A DNA stretch of 64,000 nt from Minisyncoccota bacterium (GTDB taxonomy: Bacteria; Patescibacteriota; Minisyncoccia; Phycocordibacterales; XYD1-FULL-46-19), in assembly GCA_041664425.1 (NCBI GenBank), contig JBAYKU010000003.1:3373-67372 (forward strand), in the 5' to 3' direction. Of this stretch, positions 21,598 through 29,121 are shown piece after piece (the first letter of the stretch is position 1; each line of letters begins with the position of its first letter). The notes beneath the pieces were generated by a model. The model was given only the letters and a program-made list of their open reading frames with translations. It was not told the origin of the DNA and made no database searches. A program made the position numbers and the translations under genes.

Positions 21598-22134
21598 ATG
21601 TCTAACTCCAAAACAAAAATTTTTTGGTTACTGGCCTCTATCGATGTCTTGTTGTTTGTTGGTTGGATAGTTTTATCTTTTTTGACTTGGCAAAAAGTGT
21701 CGGTGGAAACTGCTATTGCTGATTTAAATGATGGCGAATTTAAAATTGAGCTGGCTGAACTCAAACGTTTTCTTACTTCTTCTCAAGGTAAAATTGATAC
21801 GATCGGGTTGGCAGTAGTTGATTCAGAAAATGTTAATTCTCTAGTTGACCAAATTTTGAATTTGGCGCAGGGGGCTGGGGTGGAGGCGGCGATTGATCGT
21901 GCCACCGCCAGCAAGGACAGTTTAGATTTAATTATTTCCGCTAAGGGAAATTTTCGTAACTCCGTCCAATTTTTACGTTTAATGGAAAAATTGCCCTACC
22001 GGCTCACTATTAGCAAAGAATCCATGGTCAATCTGGCGGGGACGGGGAGCGACCTTTTAAAAGCTAAAACCGAGCGGGTCTCGAGTCTGTGGCGGTCGGA
22101 AATCAATATTAAGATTTTAAGTTATCACCAATAA
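21598..22134 (+). CDS. PilO-like pilus assembly protein
   Basis: TM + coiled coil, position in the pilMNO operon. Confidence 0.4.
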   Translation: MSNSKTKIFWLLASIDVLLFVGWIVLSFLTWQKVSVETAIADLNDGEFKIELAELKRFLTSSQGKIDTIGLAVVDSENVNSLVDQILNLAQGAGVEAAIDRATASKDSLDLIISAKGNFRNSVQFLRLMEKLPYRLTISKESMVNLAGTGSDLLKAKTERVSSLWRSEINIKILSYHQ

Positions 22135-22135
22135 A

Positions 22136-22459
22136 ATGGACTTCGGCAAAAAAATTAAAAATTGGTTTGGGGGTCTTTTTGATAAGGATCGTTTAAATTT
22201 TGCTTATTCTCCTTGGGGAGACTGGCGGATTATTGTAATTGTTTTTTTGTTGGGAGAGGTCTTAATTATTTCTTCGCATTATTTCTTTTACCAGTGGTCG
22301 GCAGTAGCAGAAGATCAATCTTCATCCCAGGATGGTTCTCAGACTATTGTTGAGCAAAAAAATAAACTGGACCAAGTCTATTTCTTGTACCAAAATAAAC
22401 AAAAGGTCTTAGAGGATGCCCAAAAAAATCCGCCGAGTTTGGTTGACCCATCTTTATAA
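22136..22459 (+). CDS. small membrane protein (possible PilP-like pilus component)
   Basis: operon position, single TM. Confidence 0.25.
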   Translation: MDFGKKIKNWFGGLFDKDRLNFAYSPWGDWRIIVIVFLLGEVLIISSHYFFYQWSAVAEDQSSSQDGSQTIVEQKNKLDQVYFLYQNKQKVLEDAQKNPPSLVDPSL

Positions 22460-22464
22460 AATTG

Positions 22465-22536
22465 TGCCCCCGCGAGGAATCGAACCTCGATTAACGGCTT
22501 AGAAGTCCGCAGTTTTATCCATTAAACTACAGGGGC
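22465..22536 (-). tRNA. tRNA-Arg (anticodon TCT)
   Basis: GCCCCTG TA GTTT AATGGATA AAAC...CTTCTAA...TTCGATTCC...CGGGGGCA. Confidence 0.75.
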
Positions 22537-22841
22537 TTTTTTGTCCTACCAAAACTTTCTTGTTGCCTATAAGTTTTTTTTCGATGGCAATTTGCACACC
22601 TTATCTCGCACTTATTAATCTCATTGGAGACCGATTTCCATGAGTAGTGGCCAGACAACATCTTTGCTACAGTTTTGAATTTACTATTTGGGTCAATATG
22701 ATCAAATTCTAAAACAATTGGATCATTCTCTCCACAATCGACGCATTTTTTAGACGAGAGAAAATCCAATAGCTTTTCCCTAACTTTAATGCGATGGTTC
22801 TTTTGAGCCTGATATAAGTCCTCCTTGTGTTTGTAGGGCAT
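22527..22841 (-). CDS. HNH endonuclease (small, free-standing); 3' end overlaps tRNA-Arg(TCT) by 10 nt
   Basis: CVDCGEND...LEFDHIDPNS...CANCHRKK HNH/zinc motif. Confidence 0.7.
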   Translation of the reverse strand: MPYKHKEDLYQAQKNHRIKVREKLLDFLSSKKCVDCGENDPIVLEFDHIDPNSKFKTVAKMLSGHYSWKSVSNEINKCEIRCANCHRKKTYRQQESFGRTKKPL

Positions 22842-22939
22842 ATAGTGGGATTATATCATCAAGTTCTAACCTCAACAACAGGCATTTACCATAATTAATT
22901 TATACTATAAGATTAGCATCAAATCAAAGAATTAAGGAA

Positions 22940-23686
22940 ATGAAATCATCGTTTGTTGAAGCTAAAAAAGAATTAAAAAAGCTGGCCAACCCGATTCAGG
23001 CGGAAATTCTCCAGCGCTTCTTCAAAACCGGTCGAGGTCAATATGGCGAGGGCGATATTTTTCTGGGAGTGAAAGTGCCACAAACTAGAAAAGTGGCTAA
23101 ACAATTTCGCGAGCTACCTCTGGCGGAAGTCGAAAAACTGCTACATTCTAAAATTCACGAAGAGCGTTTGCTGGCGCTACTAATTTTGATTCAGAAATTT
23201 CAGCTGTCGGGCGAAGGGGAACAGAGAAAAATTTACCGTCTCTATTTAAAAAATCTAAAAGGAACTTGTCGCGTGGGAGCGCAGCGATTTTACGCGATCA
23301 ACAATTGGGACTTGGTGGATTTGTCAGCACCGCAAATTGTCGGCACTTTTCTGCTTGATAAAAATCGGTCGGAACTTTATCGTTTGGCGCGATCTAAACA
23401 CCTCTGGAGTAGGCGAGTGGCGATGATCTCAACTTTTGCTTTCATTAAAAAACAGCAATTCGACGACAGTTTAAAACTGGCCGAGATTTTATTGACTGAT
23501 AAACACGACCTGATTCACAAAGCCGTCGGTTGGATGTTGCGCGAGGTGGGGAAGCGCGACCTAGTGGCCGAAGAAAACTTTTTGAAAAAATATGCCGGCA
23601 CCATGCCCCGCACTGCCCTCCGCTATGCTATTGAAAAATTCCCACCAGTGAAAAGACAATTTTACCTTAAATATGGCTCAAAATAA
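22940..23686 (+). CDS. DNA alkylation repair enzyme (AlkD/AlkC-like HEAT-repeat glycosylase)
   Basis: family-typical N-terminus (AEILQRFFKTG...) and HEAT-like repeats. Confidence 0.6.
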   Translation: MKSSFVEAKKELKKLANPIQAEILQRFFKTGRGQYGEGDIFLGVKVPQTRKVAKQFRELPLAEVEKLLHSKIHEERLLALLILIQKFQLSGEGEQRKIYRLYLKNLKGTCRVGAQRFYAINNWDLVDLSAPQIVGTFLLDKNRSELYRLARSKHLWSRRVAMISTFAFIKKQQFDDSLKLAEILLTDKHDLIHKAVGWMLREVGKRDLVAEENFLKKYAGTMPRTALRYAIEKFPPVKRQFYLKYGSK

Positions 23687-23702
23687 GGTTATCTGTACAC
23701 TA

Positions 23703-23733
23703 TTGACATATATATAAAACGGGTGTATAATAT
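23703..23733 (+). promoter_or_regulatory. near-consensus sigma-70 promoter (TTGACA ... TATAAT, 19-bp spacer) upstream of the DGR target gene
   Basis: ttgaca at 23703-23708, tataat at 23728-23733. Confidence 0.5.
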
Positions 23734-23812
23734 AGGGTAGATCCGCTGGAGTCTAAAACACTGGGTTTTGGGCTAGCTAGCGAAAGAAATTGACAAAGAA
23801 AGGGAAAAGACG

Positions 23813-24445
23813 ATGTCTACCAAGAACACGTCGAAAGAATCCGAAGTTGTAATGGCAACAGGAGAGCAGGTTGAGCACATCATGGATATGTGGCGTAGGC
23901 GTCTGAATAGCCGCAAACTGACCCTGGCAGAGGCCCAGCACATCATCCAGAACGGCGGTCAGTATTTGCCTATCATGGATAAGGCGGCCGATGTCCTCGT
24001 GGATCAGGTGCGGTCGGATACGCAGAACACGATCATCCGTATGGTTCGCAACGTTCAACGCAATCGGTCTGCGGAGCAGGCCATCAATGCTACCGGACGC
24101 ACGAAGTATGTCGACAGCTCTGTCCTTGCGAGCATGCCGGTCGGTAGTGGCCCCGAGGAAGTGGAACTCGTTTACTTCAAGCTTGGCCGCTATGTTGGCA
24201 ACGAAGAGCTTGAACGCGAGTACGATGTCCGTGGCCTTCGACCCGATCCTCAAGCACAATCGGCTGACAACGAGGGAGATCCGTCTTTCGCGGACGACCA
24301 CCCGAATGGTTGTCTCTGGGGTCGCGATGGTCGGGTGGCAAGTTTCGTCGCGTTCGGTCGTTGGTTCGGCGGGCGCGAGGTGAGCGTCGACCGCGTCGAC
24401 TGCGGCTGGTTCGGCCGCTGGTGGTTCGCCGGTGTTCGCAAGTAA
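23813..24445 (+). CDS. DGR target (variable) protein; the C-terminal ~34 aa are encoded by the variable repeat, ending ...GWFGRWWFAGVRK
   Basis: 3' end is an adenine-mismatched copy of the TR; GC-rich ORF; GGAAAAG RBS. Confidence 0.8.
   Translation: MSTKNTSKESEVVMATGEQVEHIMDMWRRRLNSRKLTLAEAQHIIQNGGQYLPIMDKAADVLVDQVRSDTQNTIIRMVRNVQRNRSAEQAINATGRTKYVDSSVLASMPVGSGPEEVELVYFKLGRYVGNEELEREYDVRGLRPDPQAQSADNEGDPSFADDHPNGCLWGRDGRVASFVAFGRWFGGREVSVDRVDCGWFGRWWFAGVRK
24340..24441 (+). repeat. DGR variable repeat (VR)
   Basis: ~100-bp homology to TR; every mismatch falls where TR has A (A->G/C/T). Confidence 0.85.
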
Positions 24446-24500
24446 TTTTCCCTCAGGCTTAAGTTTCTTTGTGCTTCGGTACTTAGACACTTAGTCCTTA

Positions 24501-24527
24501 CCCCACCCTCTCTGTGAGAGGGTGGGG
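24501..24527 (+). promoter_or_regulatory. GC hairpin downstream of VR (ccccaccctctc-tgtg-agagggtgggg), the typical DGR target-recognition stem-loop
   Basis: perfect 11-12 bp stem ~55 bp after the VR end. Confidence 0.6.
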
Positions 24528-24831
24528 TAAAATTTTGCATAAAAAAATAAAATGTTAAGATAAAAAAGGTAGTAGGTGAATATCAGTAAGCAATTAAGGT
24601 TGCTTGCCACCGAATCCAGTATCCATACATTGAGAATATCTGCGACTACGGTTTCAGATAGGGTGGTGTATGTAGACACTTCACAAAAAATGAAGCTACT
24701 TGGTGCGAGATACCAAGGCATTACGATGCCGAATAAGATTCAACCCCGAGAGCAAGGTGAACGGAGCAGTCATCGTATGATGGCAACTCCGAGAGTATTC
24801 GAGGGGTGGTGACATAGACGATATCTCGTAC

Positions 24832-24932
24832 AATTTCGTCACGTTCAATCGTTGGAACGACAAGCGCAAGGTGAACGTCAACCGCAACGACAACGACTGG
24901 AACGACAACTGGTGGTTCGCCGGTGTTCGCAA
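24832..24932 (+). repeat. DGR template repeat (TR), AAC-rich (aacgacaagcgcaaggtgaacgtcaaccgcaacgacaacgactggaacgacaac...)
   Basis: aligned base-by-base with VR; differences only at TR adenines. Confidence 0.85.
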
Positions 24933-24938
24933 CTCTCT

Positions 24939-25292
24939 TCATTTCTCTCCAGCTTTCACTGGAGAGTTTTGTTTTGTAAGCTTTCCATTCCAACCCCCAA
25001 GCATTTTACCAATCTCATCTAATTTTAAAGACAGAGCAATATATTTTTTAGTATCTAAAGACTTGGCCTCCCATAGGACCAGCAAAAGGACTTTGAGCGT
25101 ATCCATTTTTCTGATAGCTAATCGAACATATGGTGCCTTGTCTGCCGGAGACAAAAACGAAGCACTGGCCACGGCCTCTATCGCTTCAATAAACAAAGCG
25201 TCAACTCTTAAACCCAAAGAAAATTTTTCAACCTTGGGTAAAGTCTGATGATATTGGTGCCACAAAAGATAAGCTGATTTCAAATACTGCAA
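24939..25292 (-). CDS. avd: Avd-like accessory variability determinant (four-helix-bundle protein of the '23S rRNA intervening sequence protein' family)
   Basis: YLLWHQYHQTLPKVEKFSLGLRVDALFIEAIEAV...LDEIGKMLGGW resembles the Avd family; encoded antisense to the TR/RT. Confidence 0.6.
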   Translation of the reverse strand: MQYLKSAYLLWHQYHQTLPKVEKFSLGLRVDALFIEAIEAVASASFLSPADKAPYVRLAIRKMDTLKVLLLVLWEAKSLDTKKYIALSLKLDEIGKMLGGWNGKLTKQNSPVKAGEK

Positions 25293-25335
25293 AAGTGGTA
25301 GTAATTTTGTCGGGGGGGGGGGTACTATTGGTCAA

Positions 25336-26331
25336 ATGAGTGGAATTAAATTTATTCACAAATATGAGGATATCATTTCCCTTGATAATTTACTAGGAGC
25401 TTGGCGACAATTTGTTCGAGACAAAAAATCTAAAAAAGATGTTCAAGAATTTGAATTAAACTTGATGAGTAATATCATTTCTCTACATCTCGACCTCAAA
25501 CACAAAACCTACTCCCACGGTCCCTACCTAGCCTTCAACATCTCTGACCCCAAACCGCGTAATATCCACAAAGCCCTCGTTCGCGACCGTCTGCTCCACC
25601 ATGCCATCTACCGTGTTCTGCATCATCACTTCAACTCAAAATTCATCTACGACTCGTATTCTTGTCGTTTGGGCAAAGGCACGCACAAGGCAATTAAAAG
25701 ATTTGAACAAATGGCAAGAAAAGTTTCGTGTAATAACACCAAAACTGGCTGGATTTTAAAATGCGATGTCAGAAAGTTTTTTGCTTCGATTGATCAAACT
25801 ATACTTCTAAATATTTTAAAAAAACACGAGCCTGACCCAGATATTATCTGGCTCCTCGAGCGGGTAATCAGTAGTTTTTATAGCACCGAATTTGGCAAAG
25901 GTTTGCCTTTGGGTAATTTAACCTCGCAACTCTTGGTTAATATCTACATAAATGAATTTGACCAGTTTATGAAGCACCAACTCAAAGCCAAATATTACCT
26001 CCGTTATGCTGATGATTTTGTGATTATGGACACAGACAAAAGATGTCTCGAAAAACTTTTGCCTAAAATCAAGGTTTTTCTGCTAGTCCAGCTTAAACTC
26101 ACGCTTCATCCCGACAAGGTGTATATCAAAACTCTAGCTTCGGGTGTGGATTTTCTCGGCTGGGTGCATTTTCCTCATTATCGAGTGCTGCGGACGGCGA
26201 CAAGGAGGAGGATGTTTAAGAGAATTAGAGAAACGAGTGGCAAAAAAGAGACCGTGCAATCTTATTTGGGGTTGCTGAAGCATGGTAATGGATATGGATT
26301 AAGAGAAAAAATTATAAGCTCGGCTGGTTAA
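25336..26331 (+). CDS. DGR reverse transcriptase (331 aa, no maturase/endonuclease domains)
   Basis: RT motifs incl. YADDFVI (YxDD), the LGNLTSQ region, size typical of DGR RTs. Confidence 0.85.
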   Translation: MSGIKFIHKYEDIISLDNLLGAWRQFVRDKKSKKDVQEFELNLMSNIISLHLDLKHKTYSHGPYLAFNISDPKPRNIHKALVRDRLLHHAIYRVLHHHFNSKFIYDSYSCRLGKGTHKAIKRFEQMARKVSCNNTKTGWILKCDVRKFFASIDQTILLNILKKHEPDPDIIWLLERVISSFYSTEFGKGLPLGNLTSQLLVNIYINEFDQFMKHQLKAKYYLRYADDFVIMDTDKRCLEKLLPKIKVFLLVQLKLTLHPDKVYIKTLASGVDFLGWVHFPHYRVLRTATRRRMFKRIRETSGKKETVQSYLGLLKHGNGYGLREKIISSAG

Positions 26332-26379
26332 TGTAATTTGGAAAAAGTTAGTTTCTGTGGTTATATTAGTCAGATATTT

Positions 26380-26452
26380 GGGCGGTTAGCTCAGTTGGTA
26401 GAGCATTTGATTTACACTCAAAGGGTCACAGGTTCGAGTCCTGTACCGCCCA
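26380..26452 (+). tRNA. tRNA-Val (anticodon TAC)
   Basis: GGGCGGTTAGCTCAGTTGGTAGAGC...TTTACAC...GGTTCGAGTCC...ACCGCCCA. Confidence 0.85.
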
Positions 26453-26453
26453 C

Positions 26454-27185
26454 TTGAAAGACATCCCCATTATTTTTGAAGACTCCGATATTCTGGTCTT
26501 AAATAAACCCGCCGGTTTGTCGGTGCATGGTGATGGTTTTAATACTGAACCAACTTTAGCCGATTGGCTTCTCAAAAAATATCCCGCTTTAGCGGAAATA
26601 GGCGAGTCAATGAAAGACCAAAAGGGGATTGAAATAAAAAAACCAGGTCTAGTTCATCGTCTCGATCGCGATACCAGTGGAGTTTTGTTGGTGGCTAAAA
26701 ATCAACCCACCTTTTTATTTCTCAAAGAACAATTTAAAAATCACTTAGCTTCAAAGACTTACCGCGCAATTTTGTCGGGGGAGATGAAGGGGGAAGTGGG
26801 GCAGGATCAAACTATTTCTCTGCCGATTGGGCGGAGTAATCGTGATCCGCGCCAGCGAGTGGCCAACATCAAAGCGGCTGGCACTTTGCGGGAGGCGACG
26901 ACTATCTATCGGGTGCTGAAAACCGCTTCTGGCTATACCTATGTTGAGGCCAACCCAAAAACTGGCCGGACCCACCAGCTCCGGGTCCATTTTAAAGCCC
27001 TCAATTATCCCATCCTCTGTGACGCTCTCTATGCCCCTAAGCTCGCTTGTTCGGACATGATGGGGCGTCAGGCTCTCCACGCCTTTTCACTCTCTATTAC
27101 CCTGCCCAACGGGGAACTGGGCTGTTTTTCCGCGCCCCTACCCTTAGATTTTCAAAAAACCCTTGATAATCTTGGTTTGATGTGA
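26454..27185 (+). CDS. RluA-family pseudouridine synthase (TTG start 2 nt after the tRNA)
   Basis: GLVHRLDRDTSGVLLVAKN and HQLRVH motifs. Confidence 0.75.
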   Translation: MKDIPIIFEDSDILVLNKPAGLSVHGDGFNTEPTLADWLLKKYPALAEIGESMKDQKGIEIKKPGLVHRLDRDTSGVLLVAKNQPTFLFLKEQFKNHLASKTYRAILSGEMKGEVGQDQTISLPIGRSNRDPRQRVANIKAAGTLREATTIYRVLKTASGYTYVEANPKTGRTHQLRVHFKALNYPILCDALYAPKLACSDMMGRQALHAFSLSITLPNGELGCFSAPLPLDFQKTLDNLGLM

Positions 27186-27200
27186 TAAGCTAACGCCCGT

Positions 27201-27659
27201 ATGACATCAAGCTTTATTACTTCGCCAATCGATATGGCCAAGCGCCAAAAACTCGGTCTCAAAGCCGGGATGACTGTTCGTGTCTGGCAGAAAATTCAAG
27301 AAAAGGGTAAAACTCGCTTGCAGGCCTATGAAGGTCTGATTATTGCTTGTAAACATGGCAAAGAAGCCGGCTCAACTTTCACGGTTCGCCGAGTCGCTTC
27401 AGGGGTAGGGATGGAAAAGATTTTTCCACTTTACTCACCAAATATTGATAAGATTGAAATTTTGAAAGAAGCCAAGACCCGTCGTTCCAAACTCTATTTC
27501 ATTCGCGACAAGGCTGCCCGTGAGATCCGTCGCCGAATGCGCGGTGTGGTTCGCAAAAAGACTGCCAAGGATGATGACGAGCTCGTCGAGCAAGTGATCG
27601 AAGGTGTCGCTCTCGAAAATCCAGTGGAGATCGAGGAAGTGGCTGAAACCAAAGAATAA
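27201..27659 (+). CDS. rplS: 50S ribosomal protein L19 (with acidic C-terminal extension)
   Basis: VRVWQKIQEKGKTRLQAYEGLIIA...FTVRRV...EKIFPLYSPNI. Confidence 0.85.
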   Translation: MTSSFITSPIDMAKRQKLGLKAGMTVRVWQKIQEKGKTRLQAYEGLIIACKHGKEAGSTFTVRRVASGVGMEKIFPLYSPNIDKIEILKEAKTRRSKLYFIRDKAAREIRRRMRGVVRKKTAKDDDELVEQVIEGVALENPVEIEEVAETKE

Positions 27660-27767
27660 TTAAAACAAAAAAACCACCGAGCAGGCTCGGTGGTTTTTTG
27701 TTTTTGTTCGGCCAATATACTGGTATATACTATTGCTTGAGGATAAATTTGGAGTTAAAATAGATGG

Positions 27768-28442
27768 ATGGGTAAAAGAGGTCCAAAACCGAAAGGGGTT
27801 GTAGATACCAAATGGTCAGCAGACCTGGCCTATGCTATAGGCTTGCTGTCCTCTGATGGATGTCTTTCTTCTGATGGTAGACATATAACTCTAGTTTCAA
27901 AAGATGAAGAACAAATAGTGAATTTTCTAAATTGCCTTAAAATTGAACTCAAAATAGGTAAAACTTACAATGGTTCCAAGGATAAGAGAGTCTATTATCG
28001 TGTGCAAGTAGGTGATGTATTATTTTACAATTTTTTGTTAGAGCTTGGACTTGCCTCTGCTAAATCAAAAACTATTAGTTCTTTAAAAATTCCTGACAAA
28101 TACTTTTTTGATTTCTTAAGAGGGTCTTTTGATGGTGACGGTTGTTTTTATTCCTATTGGGATCCGCGCTGGAAATCTAGTTTTATGTTTTACACTAGTT
28201 TTATTTCTGCCAGTAAAGAACATATTAATTGGCTGCGAGACGAAATATTTAAGAGATTAAAAATTAAAGGTCATATCACTAAGGCTAAGAAAATGAATAT
28301 TTATTATCAGCTTAAATATGCTAAAAGTGATTCTTTGAAGGTGCTAAGAAAGATTTATCAGCCAAATAAGGTCGTGGTATGTCTATCTCGAAAAAGATTG
28401 AAAATTGACCAAGCTTTAGGCATAATAGGGAACAGTCTATAA
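27768..28442 (+). CDS. LAGLIDADG homing endonuclease (two LAGLIDADG motifs), free-standing, ends 4 nt before tRNA-Leu
   Basis: LAYAIGLLSSDGCL and FDFLRGSFDGDGCF motifs. Confidence 0.7.
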   Translation: MGKRGPKPKGVVDTKWSADLAYAIGLLSSDGCLSSDGRHITLVSKDEEQIVNFLNCLKIELKIGKTYNGSKDKRVYYRVQVGDVLFYNFLLELGLASAKSKTISSLKIPDKYFFDFLRGSFDGDGCFYSYWDPRWKSSFMFYTSFISASKEHINWLRDEIFKRLKIKGHITKAKKMNIYYQLKYAKSDSLKVLRKIYQPNKVVVCLSRKRLKIDQALGIIGNSL

Positions 28443-28446
28443 AAAT

Positions 28447-28530
28447 GCGCGAGTGGCGAAGTTGGTAGACGCGATACCTTGAGGTGGTATTGGGAGTAAT
28501 CCCGTGGAGGTTCGAGTCCTCTCTCGCGCA
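28447..28530 (+). tRNA. tRNA-Leu (anticodon GAG), long variable arm
   Basis: GCGCGAG...ATACC TTGAGGT GGTAT...variable arm...GGTTCGAGTCC...CTCGCGCA. Confidence 0.8.
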
Positions 28531-28664
28531 CAATGTGTAAAAAAGCCTAAATCAGGCCTTTTTCTGTAAAAGGATGTTGGTTTGCTTTTTTTATATTGTG
28601 TGATATAATATGTATTAGATAAGTGGTCTTAAACAGCTGTCGCTAGGCGACCAGGAGGTGTTTA

Positions 28665-29021
28665 GTGAGAAAGCCTATCTATCTGTACAGGGTTTACCTC
28701 CAACTTCTTGCCACTGGCAAGGTGGCTAAGTTTGGGGAGACCATGGCTGTATCGGAAGCCGAAGCAGAGAATCATCTCCGTTTCCGGGAGTACGGCGAGC
28801 TCTCGATCGAGCGACTGGAATCGGAGAAGGGTCTCCGGCTGGTCGCAGCCAGGGTTGGTACGACCAAGGCGATGAAGCTGGCCCAGTTGACTGGCGAGTT
28901 ACCTCCGGCCCCCAAGGTCCGTCAGCACCGCCAAGCGCCGGCCCAGCAGTTTTTTGCTGGCACCGGGTTCGGTCTTGCCGAACCACCGACTCGTCCTCAT
29001 CGAGTCCGTCGCCATGACTAA
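28665..29021 (+). CDS. hypothetical protein, strongly GC-rich (compositionally foreign) ORF with its own promoter, GGAGG RBS, GTG start and terminator
   Basis: ORF plus regulatory signals read from sequence; no recognisable domain. Confidence 0.4.
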   Translation: MRKPIYLYRVYLQLLATGKVAKFGETMAVSEAEAENHLRFREYGELSIERLESEKGLRLVAARVGTTKAMKLAQLTGELPPAPKVRQHRQAPAQQFFAGTGFGLAEPPTRPHRVRRHD

Positions 29022-29121
29022 GCGGCGACTCCCTTGCAAGAGCGTAGGCAGAAACAGATCACTCGATTCTGTTCCGGCCCACGCTCTTTATTTTTTGCCA
29101 AAATTGTGATAAAACAAACCT

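Follow-up and report, generated by a model that had tools for sequence, protein, structure and literature searches.

A Patescibacteria diversity-generating retroelement of ordinary layout whose template repeat is probably made as a discrete RNA converging on avd

The 64,000-nt stretch of a Minisyncoccota bacterium contig (JBAYKU010000003.1, assembly GCA_041664425.1), referred to here as the window, contains one complete diversity-generating retroelement (DGR) with the ordinary layout of the Patescibacteria, or candidate phyla radiation (CPR), in which a target gene with its variable repeat (VR) is followed by the template repeat (TR), the accessory gene avd on the reverse strand, and the reverse transcriptase (RT) gene (Table 1). 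Comparison with related loci makes it likely that the TR is produced as a discrete RNA of ~410 nt converging on avd. In the proposed model, this plus-strand non-coding RNA (~24568-24976) would start from its own promoter right after the target-gene terminator, carry a structured 5' domain of ~265 nt whose last helix ends at the TR, be clamped by pairing between this leader and a linker 3' of the TR such that the TR is closed into a loop, and end in a conserved hairpin and U-tract encoded opposite the last ~12 avd codons. The TR RNA and the avd mRNA would converge and overlap by ~40 nt, and a separate divergent region, which holds a hypermutable repeat, would drive avd and the RT gene.

The DGR parts were recognized from their sequence signatures. 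The RT aligned with Brt of Bordetella phage BPP-1 (29% identity over 304 residues, E=7e-45) and contained LGNLTSQ at residue 192 and YADD at residue 224, the [ILV]GxxxSQ motif being diagnostic of DGR-type RTs. All 21 mismatches between TR and VR fell at TR adenines, with 21 of the 27 TR adenine positions changed, and the VR was contained in the 3' end of the target open reading frame (ORF). The final 24 nt of the repeat (CTGGTGGTTCGCCGGTGTTCGCAA), a candidate GC-rich initiation of mutagenic homing site (IMH/IMH*), were the same in TR and VR and occurred in the 64 kb in these two copies only, compared to 0 expected by chance; identical IMH/IMH* pairs are known among DGRs (Wu et al., 2018, PMC5758913). 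Sequence scans further gave a hairpin with a T-run downstream of the VR that is a candidate for the target-gene terminator and/or the inverted repeat often seen after the IMH, and a perfect sigma-70 consensus 82 nt upstream of the target gene. The body of the target gene also formed a local GC peak (57% at 24000-24300 vs. ~43% for the window).

The arrangement was compared across 80 loci (L001-L080) encoding relatives of the window RT with 60-76% identity, and the closest RT and Avd relatives came nearly all from Patescibacteria metagenome-assembled genomes (MAGs). In all 75 loci with enough upstream DNA, the gene immediately preceding the RT gene was a minus-strand avd, and among the 64 loci with a TR/VR pair the gap between the TR end and the avd stop had a median of 6 nt (mostly -10 to +26), such that the tight abutment of avd and TR is a clade-wide conserved feature. 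In the window, the stop codon (24939-24941) was separated from the TR end by 6 nt (24933-24938); the initial annotation had placed the stop 7 bp away by counting from 24932 to 24939, and the adjacency itself was confirmed. An additional observation was that 11 loci (L007, L018, L021, L028, L029, L034, L044, L046, L047, L049, and L056) had no avd stop before the TR, their frames running 37-164 nt into it, with the conserved part of the protein still ending at the TR boundary.

This layout corresponds to Architecture B3, written TR-(avd)-RT for its reverse-strand avd, which makes up 90% of the CPR DGRs (Wu et al., 2018, Nucleic Acids Res 46:11, PMC5758913), and to DGR clade 2 that is restricted to Patescibacteria (Roux et al., 2021, PMC8144416). 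The window shares with these DGRs the order and orientation of TR, reverse avd, and RT gene, the target and VR upstream on the TR strand, a Patescibacteria host, a target without recognizable domain, and the lack of any other accessory gene, while nothing differs at the cassette level. The minus-strand avd abutting the TR is the ancestral, conserved layout of this RT clade, and the initial description of an unusual architecture did not survive the synteny comparison or the published norm. The gene order itself matters little, the locus being one more example of the dominant CPR layout, and the part of interest is the fine anatomy of the TR RNA together with the repeat at the avd/RT junction. 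No description of the TR-RNA leader, the hairpin in the avd stop region, or the junction repeat was found in the literature searched, a set excluding the main CPR DGR paper (Paul et al., 2017, Nat Microbiol).

The ~390 nt between VR and TR were non-coding yet conserved. In the 64 loci, a conserved "TtTGaTATAaT" box preceded a conserved 5' end (GGTAGTAGGTGAATAT) by ~7 nt and came after the target-gene hairpin and T-run, and from this consensus a promoter specific to the TR RNA is suggested in the window. RNAalifold on the 64 leaders predicted 47 pairs with compensatory changes in 43, and the structure had 95.7% of alignment cells paired compared to 68.9% in shuffles (0/500) and 39-50% with the partners slid, with 832 double-change cells vs. 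237. The long-range 12-bp helix of this domain stops 2 nt short of the TR. The leader motif AAAUGAAG directly precedes this helix on its 5' side and is the proposed partner of the linker CUUCAUUU just 3' of the TR, and the leader:linker duplex had a mean of -5.8 kcal/mol compared to -3.4 for shuffled linkers and -3.96+/-0.24 kcal/mol for linkers swapped between loci (200 permutations, minimum -4.58), with compensatory changes in several loci. As the 12-bp helix ends at the TR and the leader can pair with the 3' linker, the TR is predicted to be held as a loop between two helices. An Rfam search of 22000-28000 at a permissive E-value gave no credible DGR match, returning only two tRNAs and weak sub-threshold matches, one of which (RF02637, 16 bits against a 440-bit cut-off) touched 24483-24563. 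The window leader also had a ~45-nt insertion in a helix loop relative to most related loci (24742-24795) that contained a duplicated CCGAGAG, and its 22 nt at 24742-24763 were 82% identical to TR positions 24856-24877.

The 3' side of the TR carried a second conserved RNA element. In the window, an 8-bp stem with a 6-nt loop was followed by TTTTGTTTTG, constituting a stem-loop and U-tract of the intrinsic terminator type, and a hairpin followed by a TTTTGTTTT-like tail was present on the plus strand 3' of the TR in most of the 64 loci, beginning 11-12 nt (median) after the TR (5-15 nt in most loci) and with a median of 7 T in the 9 nt of tail. The outer stem was conserved (CUCYCC/GGRGAG) and the inner stem covaried; across 38 sequences, 93.4% of cells were paired compared to 77.6% in shuffled alignments (0/500), with double changes in seven of the eight pairs. 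G.U pairs numbered 50 on the plus strand against 4 on the complement, and the plus strand was the more stable in 38 of 50 loci. Owing to this plus-strand specificity, the hairpin was assigned to the TR transcript, and a DNA cruciform or a hairpin in the avd mRNA was disfavored by the G.U asymmetry. The stem-loop just 3' of the TR and the flank pairing, which in these loci exceeded both controls, have counterparts in the DGR RNA described by Handa et al. (see below). The single-sequence fold of 24790-25080 (z = -0.02) was uninformative alone.

How far nucleotide-level selection extends beyond the TR was delimited with the codons of avd itself. In a 76-sequence codon alignment, synonymous-site entropy was at background for codons 1-105 and collapsed only in codons 106-117 (e.g., 0.18 vs. 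0.99 background at Q108 and 0 vs. 0.95 at K117). The restriction of synonymous constraint to the last ~12 codons indicates that nucleotide selection spans ~45 nt past the TR with none deeper into avd. A conserved C-terminal protein tail (KQNSP...GEK) was considered and rejected as the main cause, since these ~12 residues were predicted to be disordered (predicted local distance difference test, pLDDT, <50), the tail length tracked the hairpin loop, some loci had the stop codon in the loop so that the 5' arm was non-coding there, the G.U pairs were specific to the plus strand, and the codon choice was frozen. The avd stop would thus always lie within a few bases of the TR because the 3' element of the TR RNA is written across the last codons of avd.

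Several points weigh against a discrete TR RNA. The TR-RNA promoter and terminator are consensus-level calls, and the terminator scan of the region found 3 compared to 3.0 expected in shuffles; since terminators were un-enriched and promoters only mildly so (12 vs. 5.6 expected), the argument for the TR RNA rests on conservation and not on the scan. The synonymous-site test might miss constraints that act only on the structure of an anti-avd RNA. The gap between avd and the RT gene was 43 nt with only a candidate RT promoter, so that read-through or leaky termination could feed the RT gene. Finally, cDNA priming in the Bordetella phage depends on ~140 nt of RNA 3' of the TR (Handa et al., bioRxiv 10.1101/2023.10.23.563531), and a 3' end of 45 nt would require a different priming arrangement.

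The first of the competing explanations was the one raised by the initial annotation, a long plus-strand RNA spanning TR, anti-avd, and RT in which antisense interference ties the expression of the RT gene to that of avd. In its favor, the RT gene shares the strand of the TR and lies 403 nt from it with no other plus-strand gene in between; intrinsic terminators are often leaky; and besides the short avd-RT gap, a simple scan gave no sigma-70-like plus-strand promoter in 24632-25381. Nevertheless, such a transcript is unlikely given the covarying and plus-strand-specific hairpin and U-tract 13-44 nt past the TR in most of the 64 loci and the lack of nucleotide-level constraint in avd beyond it. 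In addition, a TGGCAAAAT-like extended -10 candidate on the plus strand (25296-25305), just upstream of the G-run and conserved in L001-L080, may be an RT promoter and could drive the RT gene separately, and a cassette whose parts are split between the strands requires two or more transcription units (Wu et al., 2018, PMC5758913). The same bases encode, on the other strand, the conserved LPVL motif or TTG start of avd. Of the proposal in the initial annotation, the convergent geometry was retained, as overlap with the 3' end of avd is unavoidable for a functional TR RNA, while the read-through into the RT gene was not favored in view of the promoter-like box and leader of the TR RNA, its 3' hairpin and U-tract, and the unconstrained avd interior. 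An antisense effect on avd would concern only ~40 nt unless termination is leaky.

The second alternative derives from the BPP-1 DGR (mtd-avd-TR-brt), the ribonucleoprotein (RNP) of which has an Avd-binding stem-loop at spacer positions 3-33 and a duplex formed by the two regions that flank the TR (Handa et al., bioRxiv 10.1101/2023.10.23.563531). The two systems share a homologous RT, an Avd-fold protein, an adenine-specific TR/VR pair, a GC-rich conserved 3' end of the repeat, and a hairpin downstream of the VR. All BPP-1 parts are on one strand with avd between VR and TR and a 144-nt non-coding TR-brt spacer, whereas in the window an inverted avd occupies the space between TR and RT gene, and the long non-coding stretch is found between VR and TR. 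At the level of the RNA, both have an 8-10-bp stem-loop immediately downstream of the TR and a short pairing of upstream sequence with the linker that closes the TR into a loop. The window stem-loop differs in being followed by a U-tract with no sign of conserved RNA further downstream, and its large structured part, as predicted from sequence, is 5' and not 3' of the TR. A Bordetella-like organization would instead have a functional spacer RNA of at least ~140 nt, including the priming adenosine and RT-binding elements, antisense to the C-terminal third of avd, with the hairpin as its first (Avd-binding) element rather than a terminator. The position of the phage stem-loop matches that of the window hairpin, and stem-loops with an upstream:downstream duplex were predicted in 207 of 278 DGRs, CPR included (Handa et al., bioRxiv 10.1101/2023.10.23.563531). 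This alternative was considered quite improbable, since synonymous variation was at background in avd codons 60-105 (spacer ~45-180), the phage stem-loop has no U-tract whereas the T-rich tail was kept in most loci including several with a differing stem, and the large covarying domain is upstream of the TR instead. With the discrete TR RNA preferred, the 3' hairpin is by analogy probably the counterpart of the phage Avd-binding stem-loop, an intrinsic terminator, or both.

Table 1. Features of the DGR locus, with positions numbered from the first nucleotide of the window.
Feature	Positions	Strand	Details
Promoter-like site of target gene	23703-23731	+	TTGACA-17-TATAAT, 12/12 consensus matches; pattern match only
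DGR target gene	23813-24445	+	210 amino acids, without Pfam domain; VR at 3' end (protein C-terminus)
Variable repeat (VR)	24343-24441	+	99-nt direct repeat of TR
Hairpin and T-run downstream of VR	24498-24530	+	Perfect 15-bp hairpin; hairpin/terminator scan; same site in most related loci (alignment A3)
Candidate TR-RNA promoter	24534-24561	+	-35-like TTTGCA 24534-24539; extended -10 TGTTAAGAT 24553-24561
Predicted structured 5' leader of TR RNA (~265 nt)	24568-24833	+	RNAalifold, 64 loci; runs up to TR
Predicted leader helices, first three	24586-24594/24599-24607; 24624-24631/24665-24672; 24637-24647/24650-24660	+	
Leader motif AAAUGAAG	24688-24695	+	Proposed partner of linker
Predicted leader helices, last three	24703-24714/24820-24831; 24718-24720/24727-24729; 24743-24750/24800-24807	+	First of these is the 12-bp long-range helix
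Template repeat (TR)	24834-24932	+	99-nt direct repeat of VR
Linker CUUCAUUU	24937-24944	+	Proposed partner of leader AAAUGAAG
avd, main ORF	24939-25292	-	117 amino acids from TTG 25292; frame open to 25331
Conserved hairpin and U-tract	24945-24976	+	Hairpin 24945-24966, U-tract 24967-24976; terminator scan, covariation; inside last avd codons
Out-of-frame N-terminal piece of long-form avd	25228-25359	-	GTG 25359, MNKFNSTHLTNSTPPP...; matches homologue N-termini, e.g., P0004 (MNSFNFTHLTNNTPPPTKLLPLLQYLK)
G11/C11 simple-sequence repeat	25312-25322		Between avd and RT; in long-form avd frame and RT 5' untranslated region
DGR reverse transcriptase	25336-26331	+	331 amino acids; RVT_1 E=3.4e-22

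The identity of the minus-strand ORF as an Avd-family protein, proposed in the initial annotation, was supported by profile, fold, and composition. It matched NCBIfam NF033474 (DivGenRetAVD; E=1.3e-13, 51 bits, below the curated cut-off of 80) and Pfam bAvd PF22296 (E=4.5e-8, 34 bits, below the curated cut-off of 40), and it had 878 database homologues with a precomputed PF22296 assignment in all 120 listed and 30 invariant columns in a 22-sequence Avd alignment (A1). As a search of the Avd profile against Protein Data Bank (PDB) sequences gave no match at E<=1, folds were compared. The AlphaFold model (pLDDT 78) was a predicted four-helix bundle that Foldseek matched to 2GSC, 2RLD, 4DWL, and 8UBE with template modeling (TM) scores of 0.65-0.76 and probability 1.00, at E-values of only 0.02-0.3; the scores against Bordetella phage Avd (4DWL and 8UBE) were 0.68-0.76 and the other matches were related pentameric bundles. 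The product is a small basic protein encoded beside the DGR RT, its isoelectric point of 9.63 being close to that of BPP-1 Avd (9.55). A six-frame profile search of the 64 kb found no second Avd-like frame, confirming that the sole Avd-like ORF is on the minus strand and that no plus-strand avd had been overlooked, and plus-strand ORFs in the avd region had no Pfam family match. That the ORF is a chance frame or decayed gene and not a functional Avd, as the sub-cut-off profile scores, the missing PDB sequence match, and the frame-shifted long-form start might suggest, is very improbable and was largely refuted by the homologues and invariant columns, the fold and isoelectric point, the intact main frame, and the position next to the DGR RT in every one of the 75 loci.

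The second element of interest was the simple-sequence repeat at the avd/RT junction. The G11 tract was the sole G/C run of at least 7 in the 64 kb, and 68 of the 71 G/C runs of at least 8 in 617 kb of related loci were situated at the same junction. Most loci had a tract of G8-G14, the others (GGTT)n, (GGCT)n, or (CT)n, such that no repeat unit is a multiple of 3 nt long, and tract length varied between related loci with identical flanks. An Illumina poly-G artifact was rejected as the origin of the run because it is internal, has conserved flanks, and is present in 60-odd independent assemblies. The MAG contigs of L015, L036, L076, and L019 ended at or within ~115 nt of the G-run, with L015 beginning with G26, suggesting assembly breaks at the repeat. 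The only second assembly with the same RT, from this organism, was identical over 4.2 kb and uninformative on tract variation.

The repeat leaves the avd start ambiguous, as the frame is open to 25331 and the homologue-matching GTG upstream at 25359 is placed out of frame by the C11 run. Many Avd homologues are 135-147 amino acids long with an N-terminal extension of the form M...TPPP(T/Q)xLLP(L/V)L where the C-run encodes prolines, and deleting one C from the window fuses the N-terminal piece to avd, giving a 139-amino acid protein that matches these homologues. Long-form avd and the RT gene overlap head-to-head by 24 nt (25336-25359), with RT codons 1-8 (MSGIKFIH) opposite avd codons 1-8 (MNKFNSTH). 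The long-form frame was in frame in 31 loci and out of frame in 43; because 31/74 is near a random one third, the upstream start does not prove phase variation and the true start could possibly lie downstream of the repeat at the conserved TTG of LPVL, with the RT or avd leaders as possible alternative targets of the repeat. From its sequence, the repeat is a candidate phase-variation (slipped-strand) switch of the DGR machinery. It resembles contingency loci such as the poly-G tracts of Neisseria and Campylobacter genes in that one site near the start of a reading frame retains a long G/C homopolymer or a repeat with units of two or four nucleotides, which differs in length between close relatives with conserved flanks and gives in-frame and out-of-frame states. 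It differs in that the length differences seen here are between loci, that the avd start may be downstream of the repeat, and that the window repeat is also in the RT 5' region so that a switch, if any, may act on avd or the RT gene. A literature search found no paper linking DGRs to such repeats.

The clade offers a compact and sharply bounded candidate template RNA consisting of a putative promoter, a strongly covarying 5' domain, the TR loop, and a 3' hairpin with a U-tail. Such an RNA could be synthesized and tested with its own RT and Avd, and its predicted organization, which differs from that of the sole structurally solved example, bears on DGR priming and the restriction of reverse transcription. 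A broader and doubtful, although possible, proposal is that the Patescibacteria DGR RNA has been reorganized, with the ~265-nt upstream domain replacing the downstream spacer and the hairpin/terminator placed across the avd stop, and that the junction repeat makes mutagenesis phase-variable so that only a fraction of cells diversify the target. If the repeat does switch Avd or RT expression, it would represent a simple genetic on/off control of targeted hypermutation in very small genomes.

In the genomic neighborhood, tRNA-Arg(TCT) at 22464-22536 and tRNA-Val(TAC) at 26380-26453 bracket a block comprising an HNH-domain ORF (22527-22841, minus strand), a DNA-alkylation-repair gene (22940-23686), and the DGR. 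Further downstream, tRNA-Leu(GAG) at 28447-28531 follows an ORF (27768-28442) the copy of which in L082 had a faint LAGLIDADG_3 match, and a local GC peak of 61% compared to the ~43% of the window was present at 28800-29100, a short stretch past this tRNA with ORFs in several frames.

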